Below, piece after piece: positions 22,631-23,576 of a stretch of DNA of 64,000 nucleotides (position 1 is its first letter; the number at the start of each line of letters is the position of its first letter). The translations under genes and the position numbers were made by a program. The notes below the pieces were generated by a model. It saw only the letters and a list, made by a program, of their open reading frames with translations. It had not been told where the DNA came from and made no database searches. The stretch is from an uncultured Clostridia bacterium (lineage in GTDB: Bacteria > Bacillota > Clostridia > TANB77 > CAG-508), in assembly GCA_944393505.1 (NCBI GenBank), contig CALYAK010000001.1:58775-122774 (forward strand). Direction: 5' to 3'.

Positions 22631-23576
22631 TTACAATTTTTTTGCTTCTTGCAGTGCAATTAAAAAAATTTCTTCTACTCTTTCTAATATTTCATCTGCT
22701 TGTTCAATTGGTAGTGCTTCTCCTTCTTTTCCTCTTCCTACTTCAATCGTATAACCTGGTTTTAAAAAATTTTCAACGAACCAATCTTTATAACCTGCAA
22801 AAGAAGAATCTTTTTCTGGCTTTGTCAATAAATAACCAGAAACGGTTTCAAACTTCTTCCCTATTTCATAACTTTCTTTAATTTTTCCATTTCCGATCAT
22901 CCCAATAAATTTCTTCTCCTTGTGAATGAAGAGATATCGTTAAATTAAATTGCTGCAAAGTTGTAAAATTTGCAAGGCTTTGACTTTCCAACTCAGATAA
23001 AGGATTTGGTCCTACATAATCACGATAATTTGGTCCTACTACTCCTTTTTTTCTTTTGATTACTTTTGCTTTTTCCCATCCAGTTGGATAATTTAAATTT
23101 AAATCAACACCCCTAATATTTGCCTTCCAGTTTTTTAAATATTTTTGATTTTTAAAAATTAATTCCAAAAATTCTTTTTGTTCAAAAATATATTTTTCCT
23201 TTTGAACCAGATCTACTCCATCTGGGTTTACCATCGGAACAAGAAAAAGTTTCGTTTGCGATAAAATTGAATTAACATCATATCCTTTATACAAATGATC
23301 TTTTTTTAGATGATTTAATAATTTTTCGAAAAAGTTTATACTGACAAGACTTGTGATCCATTCGTTTGCATGATGTGCCGCATTAATTAAAATTTTTTTA
23401 TTTCCTTCCCCTACTTTTAAATACGGAATTTTATGATTTAAAATACTCTTTCCGATACTTCCTTCTTCTAATGAGTTGATTTCTTTAAATTCATATTTTA
23501 AAAATTGGATATCTCGAACCAATTTTTGATATGTATAAAAATAATCTATTTTTCCAATACACTTTTCCATATTCAC
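22631..23576 (-). CDS. M14-family zinc peptidase (gamma-D-glutamyl-meso-diaminopimelate peptidase-like), split into 232-aa and 89-aa ORFs by a frameshift at a T5 run (22882-22886)
   Basis: HANEW zinc-ligand motif, PMVNPDG, DLNLNY. The downstream frame carries the typical C-terminal GYKDWFVENFLKPGYTIEVG segment. Deleting one base of the homopolymer gives a continuous protein of about 315 aa. Confidence 0.65.

Follow-up and report, generated by a model that had tools for sequence, protein, structure and literature searches.

The 64-kb window analysed here covers the replication-origin region of a low-GC (~29%) Gram-positive chromosome of the Clostridia type, in which the cumulative GC skew turns at ~30 kb. 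The origin genes dnaA, dnaN, recF and gyrB lie on the minus strand (Table 1). In a related MAG (L017, 3953–5300, plus strand) dnaA is called as two ORFs of 156 aa and 311 aa, which reflects either a frameshift or an assembly error in this essential gene. The interval between gyrB and gyrA holds five minus-strand ORFs: a peptidase gene of the M14 family, a 185-aa TraC-like/TrsD-like ORF, a 625-aa VirB4-like ORF, a 366-aa ParA/CbiA-like ORF, and a 244-aa ORF for which the domain scan gave no match above threshold. Past gyrA the plus strand carries three ORFs that are VirD4-like, pilin-like and VirB6-like, and after these come dnaB (DnaB_2) and a gene resembling dnaI/DnaC; the VirB6-like label is our reading of a hydrophobic 295-aa ORF without a domain match. 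Immediately 3' of gyrB is a 20-bp perfect hairpin with a T-run (24016–24060). This is probably the gyrB terminator, and as such it would uncouple transcription of the M14 gene from that of gyrB. At the left end of the window (525–4581 and 5728–7437, both on the minus strand) are genes for a dockerin/Big_2/SH3 protein, a sortase, a cohesin-domain protein and a VanW/G5/PG_binding_4 protein, a set that fits a Gram-positive envelope with cellulosome-like surface assemblies.

The M14 gene is divided between two ORFs. The first begins with the ATG at 23570, 5 nt downstream of a Shine-Dalgarno sequence, and ends at a TAA (22878–22880). The second, of 89 aa, is in the +1 frame. The GTG at 23576, which was mechanically listed as a start, was rejected, as it falls inside the ribosome-binding site. 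The initial annotation had recognised an M14-type gene and this is borne out, with the N-terminal fragment matching Pfam Peptidase_M14 at 2.9e-28 (99.7 bits against a cutoff of 21.6, above the gathering score) and the motifs HHANEW, PMVNPDG and DLNLNY all being found. The zinc ligands and the catalytic glutamate are not on one polypeptide; the glutamate is encoded in the 89-aa ORF, downstream of the frameshift. Its assignment comes from the HMMER alignment to carboxypeptidase A2, in which 'ytiEv' is paired with 'fafEl'.

Table 1. Features of the M14 locus and of the neighbouring origin region (positions are those of the 64-kb window)
Feature	Position	Strand	Basis or remark
dnaA	28820–30184	minus	
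gyrB, upstream neighbour of the M14 gene	24067–25980	minus	dnaA-dnaN-recF-gyrB...gyrA origin region
Shine-Dalgarno AGGAG, 5 nt upstream of ATG 23570	23576–23580	minus	direct sequence reading
Whole M14 peptidase pseudogene	22631–23570	minus	312 codons after removing one base; gap-free alignment to homologues
N-terminal ORF, 230 aa, Peptidase_M14, Zn ligands	22878–23570	minus	Pfam PF00246, 2.9e-28; called in many assemblies
HxxE zinc-ligand motif, H67 and E70 in HHANEW	23361–23372	minus	invariant columns; aligned to carboxypeptidase A H69/E72
Third zinc ligand, H215 (SLHSQG)	22926–22928	minus	invariant column
C-terminal ORF, 89 aa, +1 frame, catalytic Glu strand and C-terminal helix	22631–22900	minus	
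Most likely inserted base, T on coding strand (A on plus strand)	22889	minus	orthologue alignment; tblastn
A5 run (T5 on plus strand)	22882–22886	minus	alternative repair site; only conceivable +1 slippage site before the stop
Catalytic Glu, E276 of repaired protein (YTIEVG), equivalent to carboxypeptidase A Glu270	22742–22744	minus	invariant column
Promoter-like TTGACA-17-TAAAAT, 11/12 of sigma-70 consensus	22595–22623	minus	pattern scan only
TraC-like/TrsD-like ORF, 185 aa, equivalent to VirB4 N-terminal domain	22022–22579	minus	NCBIfam TrsD, VirB4-model N-terminal parts
VirB4-like ATPase, 625 aa, intact	20158–22035	minus	Pfam P-loop_TraG and AAA_10
gyrA	15792–18236	minus	

That a single-base change breaks the coding sequence, as had been proposed, is confirmed by the 230-aa ORF and its 89-aa continuation in the +1 frame. 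Deletion of one base from the run at 22882–22886 yields a protein of 312 aa; this aligns gap-free to homologues of ~300–312 aa, of which there are thousands, and retains every family-invariant residue. The earlier placement of the change within this T5 run holds only in part: removing a base there does restore the frame, but the orthologues put the insertion at 22889, outside the run. When the DNA is aligned with the intact orthologues of L011, L015 and L017, the single gap falls at 22889, and the tblastn HSPs of an intact orthologue (P0002) end at 22890 and resume at 22888. On the coding strand the surrounding sequence is CGGAAA[T]GGAAAAATT, with the inserted T 3 nt 5' of the A5 run. Repair at either site gives a protein of equal length, but removal of a base in the A5 run leaves a W where the orthologues carry G. 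The ancestral peptide at the lesion would have been DDRKGKIKE, its Gly being common to the four closest orthologues. There is no paralogue of the gene in the 64-kb window, as searched by tblastn with P0002.

What kind of M14 enzyme did the intact gene encode? The window protein and its clade consist of the catalytic domain only (305–312 aa), without LysM or peptidoglycan-binding repeats. Homologues that are 37–45% identical to it, from Clostridia, Oscillospiraceae, Hathewaya and Paenibacillus, are often 400–430 aa long and start directly with PG_binding_1 plus LysM or with LysM domains, without a signal peptide. PG_binding/LysM and M14 domains are combined in the same way in L. sphaericus endopeptidase I and in B. 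subtilis YqgT (EC 3.4.19.11). In addition, a 56%-identical homologue (P0031) carries the IMG name g-D-glutamyl-meso-diaminopimelate peptidase. The domains of the homologues and this name uphold the earlier placement of the gene in the group that acts on peptidoglycan peptides, the gamma-D-Glu-DAP peptidase type. Gamma-D-glutamyl-(L)-meso-diaminopimelate peptidase I shares with the window M14 the HxxE...H ligands, the catalytic Glu and the absence of a signal peptide; it differs in having LysM/PG-binding domains, whereas the window protein is a catalytic domain only and its gene is frameshifted. The likeness to this enzyme of Lysinibacillus sphaericus is drawn from the architecture of the homologues and from the IMG name of P0031. 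We infer that the intact window protein would be an endopeptidase-I-like gamma-D-Glu-diamino-acid peptidase that cleaves stem peptides, a substrate assigned by homology and domain architecture, with the bond taken from the annotation name on P0031. Endopeptidase I of L. sphaericus is sporulation-associated, and for this reason the sporulation genes kept in the lineage are relevant; within the window these are a Germane-domain gene (44867–45271, plus strand) and spoIIR (52863–53531, minus strand).

Other members of the family are further removed. MpaA, the E. coli murein tripeptide amidase of cytoplasmic peptidoglycan recycling, has the M14 fold, the cytoplasmic location and the proposed target bond in common with the window M14. 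However, no NCBIfam subfamily model matched, the MpaA model (NF007897) giving only a sub-threshold 16.3 bits against a cutoff of 157, and MpaA structures are absent from the matches of the PDB profile search. Identity with MpaA was rejected on this score, far under the cutoff. Carboxypeptidases A, B and T (M14A) are the best structural and profile matches, yet are only ~20% identical: the PDB profile search returned them at E ~1e-13, and an AF2 model of a 69%-identical orthologue (pLDDT 89) matched carboxypeptidases B, O, T and A with a TM of ~0.74. The equivalent of Arg145, which binds the C-terminal carboxylate of the substrate in M14A, is Leu in the window M14 (GVDLNLNY versus GVDxNRNW), and the pro-peptide and secretion signal of the M14A carboxypeptidases are absent from it. 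The lack of a signal peptide had been noted previously, and hydropathy agrees: within the first 40 residues the highest 10-aa window reaches 0.32, compared with 3.07 in the pilin-like control, on the Kyte-Doolittle scale, a simple hydropathy measure rather than a dedicated predictor. Nor does the protein contain a hydrophobic segment or membrane anchor, its best 19-aa window scoring 0.79 against 2.68 in the same control.

The frameshift is a property of the species. Ten Logan assemblies from several SRA projects, 99.6–99.8% identical to the window, have the same sequence at the lesion, and the same 230+89 gene calls are found in 10 further ENA assemblies from several studies. In all, the split is present in more than 100 independent metagenome assemblies; the exact 89-aa ORF was recorded on 175 contigs, and 114 blocks of the collection index the commonest 230-aa allele. 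No intact allele of the species was found in this collection of ~15 billion proteins, where the best intact protein is only 69% identical, and in the 90%-identity cluster the representative and all 15 members listed are 230 aa or shorter. In most contigs the frameshift is the only sign of decay in the gene. The dN/dS against the nearest orthologue is 0.23, with a slight non-synonymous excess on the branch of the window. This low ratio and the only slight branch excess indicate that the lesion is young relative to the species split, and, taken with the scarcity of further decay, the ratio makes some residual function possible. The major allele of the N-terminal fragment accounts for ~36% of contigs; among the variants of this fragment is V155I, which lies in the conserved GVDLNLN motif, and in the C-terminal fragment the variant S32F alters a near-invariant Ser. 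For VirB4, which is twice as long, the major allele is on 80% of contigs, and the greater variety of M14 protein alleles hints at relaxed constraint. Within-species pN/pS is uninformative: diversity is low, with only 5 SNPs, and choosing the loci by an exact match of the protein disfavours non-synonymous variants. A 66-aa ORF starting MGKSKSNQKKKGVVGP (P0144, Logan, two contigs), which corresponds to about 23050–23075 (minus strand) at an A7 run of the M14 gene, points to a further frameshift in some strains or, alternatively, to a low-coverage assembly error.

A second gene of the window is affected in a similar manner. One extra A in an A6 run (36323–36328) divides the tRNA modification gene mnmG (gidA; 34769–36722, plus strand) into ORFs of 532 aa and 120 aa. 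More than 130 contigs have the 120-aa ORF among their gene calls, and the representative of its 90%-identity cluster is also 120 aa, while all relatives, at most 91% identical, have an intact MnmG of 624–633 aa. This is a second species-wide frameshift in 64 kb and, as in M14, a +1 shift would be needed at a Lys AAA run. The simple reading of both is drift, which fixes slightly deleterious indels in a clonal species of low diversity.

The genes that flank the M14 pseudogene resemble parts of a type IV secretion system (T4SS). The set spans 10499–13322 (plus strand) and 18335–22579 (minus strand) and is interleaved with gyrB, gyrA and dnaB/dnaI, with the VirD4-like, pilin-like and VirB6-like genes on one side and the TraC/TrsD-like, VirB4, ParA-like and 244-aa ORFs on the other. 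The VirB4-like ATPase scores 304.9 bits with the NCBIfam CD1110-family model, just below the cutoff of 325, and the TraC-like ORF is assigned to PF26593 in relatives. The 185-aa TraC-like and 625-aa VirB4 ORFs overlap by 14 nt (22022–22035, minus strand); their separation is not a frameshift, because every relative has the same two-gene layout, in some cases with a gap between the genes. Gene order is kept in at least 87 loci (L011–L020 and L099–L178), and in the loci found with the VirB4 profile it is gyrB-TraC-like-VirB4-ParA-like-p244-gyrA-dnaI-dnaB-VirB6-like-pilin-VirD4. That metagenome scan returned 80 loci, all from close relatives (66–82% identical) rather than from distant versions of the cluster. 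Across the loci of relatives VirB4 is 66–86% identical, whereas the nearest homologue on a plasmid reaches only 35%. The scanned window ORFs, of at least 110 aa, yielded no relaxase or integrase domain, and our literature search found no description of a T4SS between gyrB and gyrA. The set looks vertically inherited or domesticated rather than mobile.

Is the M14 gene the wall hydrolase of this T4SS-like cluster, as the initial annotation had suggested? The position of the gene beside VirB4 needs a small correction, in that its direct neighbour is the TraC-like/TrsD-like ORF (22022–22579), with VirB4 (20158–22035) next after it. The distribution of the family speaks against the suggestion. Among 80 genomic loci with an M14 homologue, 78 have neither gyrB nor a T4SS-like gene within 10 kb, the exceptions being the two closest, and across Clostridia and Paenibacillus the family is widely found with no T4SS genes beside it. 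Clustering of the genes around the 78 homologues revealed no widely conserved partner; the most frequent neighbours are a glutamate racemase-like gene (a by-eye call) at 7 loci and an unidentified gene, likewise at 7. In the plasmid collection VirB4 homologues occur in 2432 records and the M14 family in 18, all of them large replicons with at most 31% identity, and there were no T4SS neighbours beside M14 in the two large-replicon records inspected. The survey of T4SS loci in relatives that had been called for gave the same answer: among the 49 VirB4-anchored loci that have both gyrB and the TraC-like gene, 2 carry M14 in the gap between them and 47 do not. The usual M14-free gap is ~600 nt and has no ORF, and a relaxed tblastn over the 49 M14-free gaps gave no credible relics of the gene, so that gain and loss of M14 are not separable by relics. 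On the gyrB+VirB4 tree the M14-positive loci fall in three separate clades, which fits an ancestral gene that disappeared at least twice from loci retaining the T4SS-like genes.

The known enzymes of this kind are also of a different build. According to a recent review, all known Gram-positive VirB1 homologues are membrane-anchored and have extracellular CHAP, SLT, muramidase or LytM domains (PMC12857230). PrgK, TraG of pIP501 and Orf14 of Tn916, the VirB1-type proteins, are like M14 in being encoded just upstream of VirB4 genes and in having a peptidoglycan-related substrate. These three are membrane-anchored, with extracellular CHAP, SLT, muramidase or LytM domains (PMC12857230), whereas the window M14 is leaderless, has Peptidase_M14 as its sole domain, and is absent from most clusters. 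Our literature search found no paper that ties an M14 enzyme to a T4SS. With the great majority of its homologues away from T4SS genes, the great majority of clusters without it, and no anchor, the claim that M14 serves as wall hydrolase of the cluster is not supported.

Could the M14 protein nevertheless be, or have been, an accessory wall-remodelling enzyme of the chromosomal T4SS-like apparatus, which trimmed stem peptides locally for a channel or pilus and whose decay reflects a change in that system? In five distinct lineages (52–69% identical) M14 lies directly upstream of TraC-like/VirB4 and is co-oriented with them. The nearest plasmid T4SS (35% VirB4 identity) has a gene for a C39-family peptidase in the same position, directly upstream of its PrgI-VirB4 gene. 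Apart from M14, no accessory gene recurs in the gyrB...gyrA block across the 87 loci, nor does any other wall hydrolase; M14 is therefore the only wall-active enzyme ever seen in this block. We nonetheless regard such a role as unlikely, given the missing signal peptide and anchor, the M14-free state of most related clusters, and a family that is common without T4SS genes and was not found on conjugative Gram-positive plasmids. In addition, M14 is broken while the T4SS-like genes remain intact and highly conserved, and a separate promoter-like site lies within the 51 nt that divide the M14 stop from the start of the TraC-like gene. In L011 (11016–12327, plus strand), the closest intact relative, a radical-SAM gene (232 aa) and a gene for a 108-aa membrane protein lie between M14 and the TraC-like gene.

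The remaining explanations concern the frameshift itself. An artefact of sequencing or assembly might be suspected next to a homopolymer, but the identical site in independent Logan assemblies, the split calls in ENA assemblies and the lack of an intact allele in the collection leave it a negligible chance; an error was rejected because the split is shared by so many independent assemblies. Another alternative is that the frameshift is bypassed, with tRNA-Lys slipping +1 on A AAA A (TGG AAA AAT TAA) so that some full-length enzyme with a G to W change is made. MnmG modifies the wobble base of tRNA-Lys, and the split of mnmG might favour the slip. The A5 run follows the insertion and precedes the stop, and slipping by +1 on it, within the candidate stretch CGGAAATGGAAAAATTAA, restores the M14 frame exactly; unbypassed reading ends DDRKWKN-stop, whereas the bypass product would show the junction peptide EEIYWDDRKWKIKESYEIGK. 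A second fixed frameshift that requires +1 at an A6 Lys run, in mnmG, and the otherwise intact state of both M14 halves in most contigs are in keeping with this. Set against prfB-type +1 features, AAA AAT TAA permits a slip of Lys-tRNA, but the stop comes one codon too late and there is no SD-like element ahead of the site, which also has no rare codon and a short A5. All orthologues from other species are single-frame, so this is not a conserved programmed site. Amino-acid polymorphism is higher in M14 than in VirB4, and the 66-aa ORF on two contigs is a possible second frameshift allele. Since the site is unconserved and the known stimulators are absent, we rate bypass as improbable. Less probable again is its extension, in which the same tRNA-Lys slip that decodes M14 also rescues mnmG, in a self-reinforcing and possibly autoregulatory, frameshift-tolerant state; the less exotic variant would make M14 a past accessory wall-trimming factor of a domesticated, origin-proximal T4SS-like machine. 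Finally, each of the two ORFs might be translated on its own and the products combine into an active split enzyme. In the model of an orthologue the break maps to a surface loop that joins a strand and a helix, and the 89-aa ORF begins with ATG. However, the nearest SD-like sequence is 15 nt upstream of this ATG, which itself lies 20 nt upstream of the stop of the first ORF, a poor geometry for translational coupling, and the split arrangement is found in no relative. We give a split enzyme slightly less credence even than the self-reinforcing state.

The reading we consider likely is that M14 is a recently inactivated, leaderless gene, a lineage-specific accessory at the origin and not a working part of the T4SS-like operon. 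Its intact ancestor would have been a cytoplasmic, catalytic-domain-only M14 zinc peptidase that acted on peptidoglycan stem peptides. Insertion of a T at 22889 on the coding strand would have shifted the frame and brought translation to a stop four codons on. The resulting 230-aa product would keep the three zinc ligands and lose the catalytic glutamate and the C-terminal part of the fold; with these missing it should be inactive, and loss of M14 activity is what the sequence predicts. The frameshift is fixed in this species of very low diversity. The gene itself appears to have been inherited vertically in a few related lineages and is missing from the gyrB-gyrA site in most. The T4SS-like operon, which apparently has its own promoter, stays intact, and M14 would not be a working part of it; the two are presumably independent.

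The M14 locus is an ordinary pseudogene of a known family, an accessory gene that is being lost in an uncultured, low-diversity Clostridia species of the gut, and should be annotated as a pseudogene and not as a T4SS component. This negative result removes the attractive but unsupported idea of M14 as a VirB1 substitute. The T4SS-like surroundings matter more than the M14 gene itself. They are inherited vertically at the origin across the clade, without a recurrent dedicated hydrolase in the block surveyed, and may represent a domesticated T4SS.
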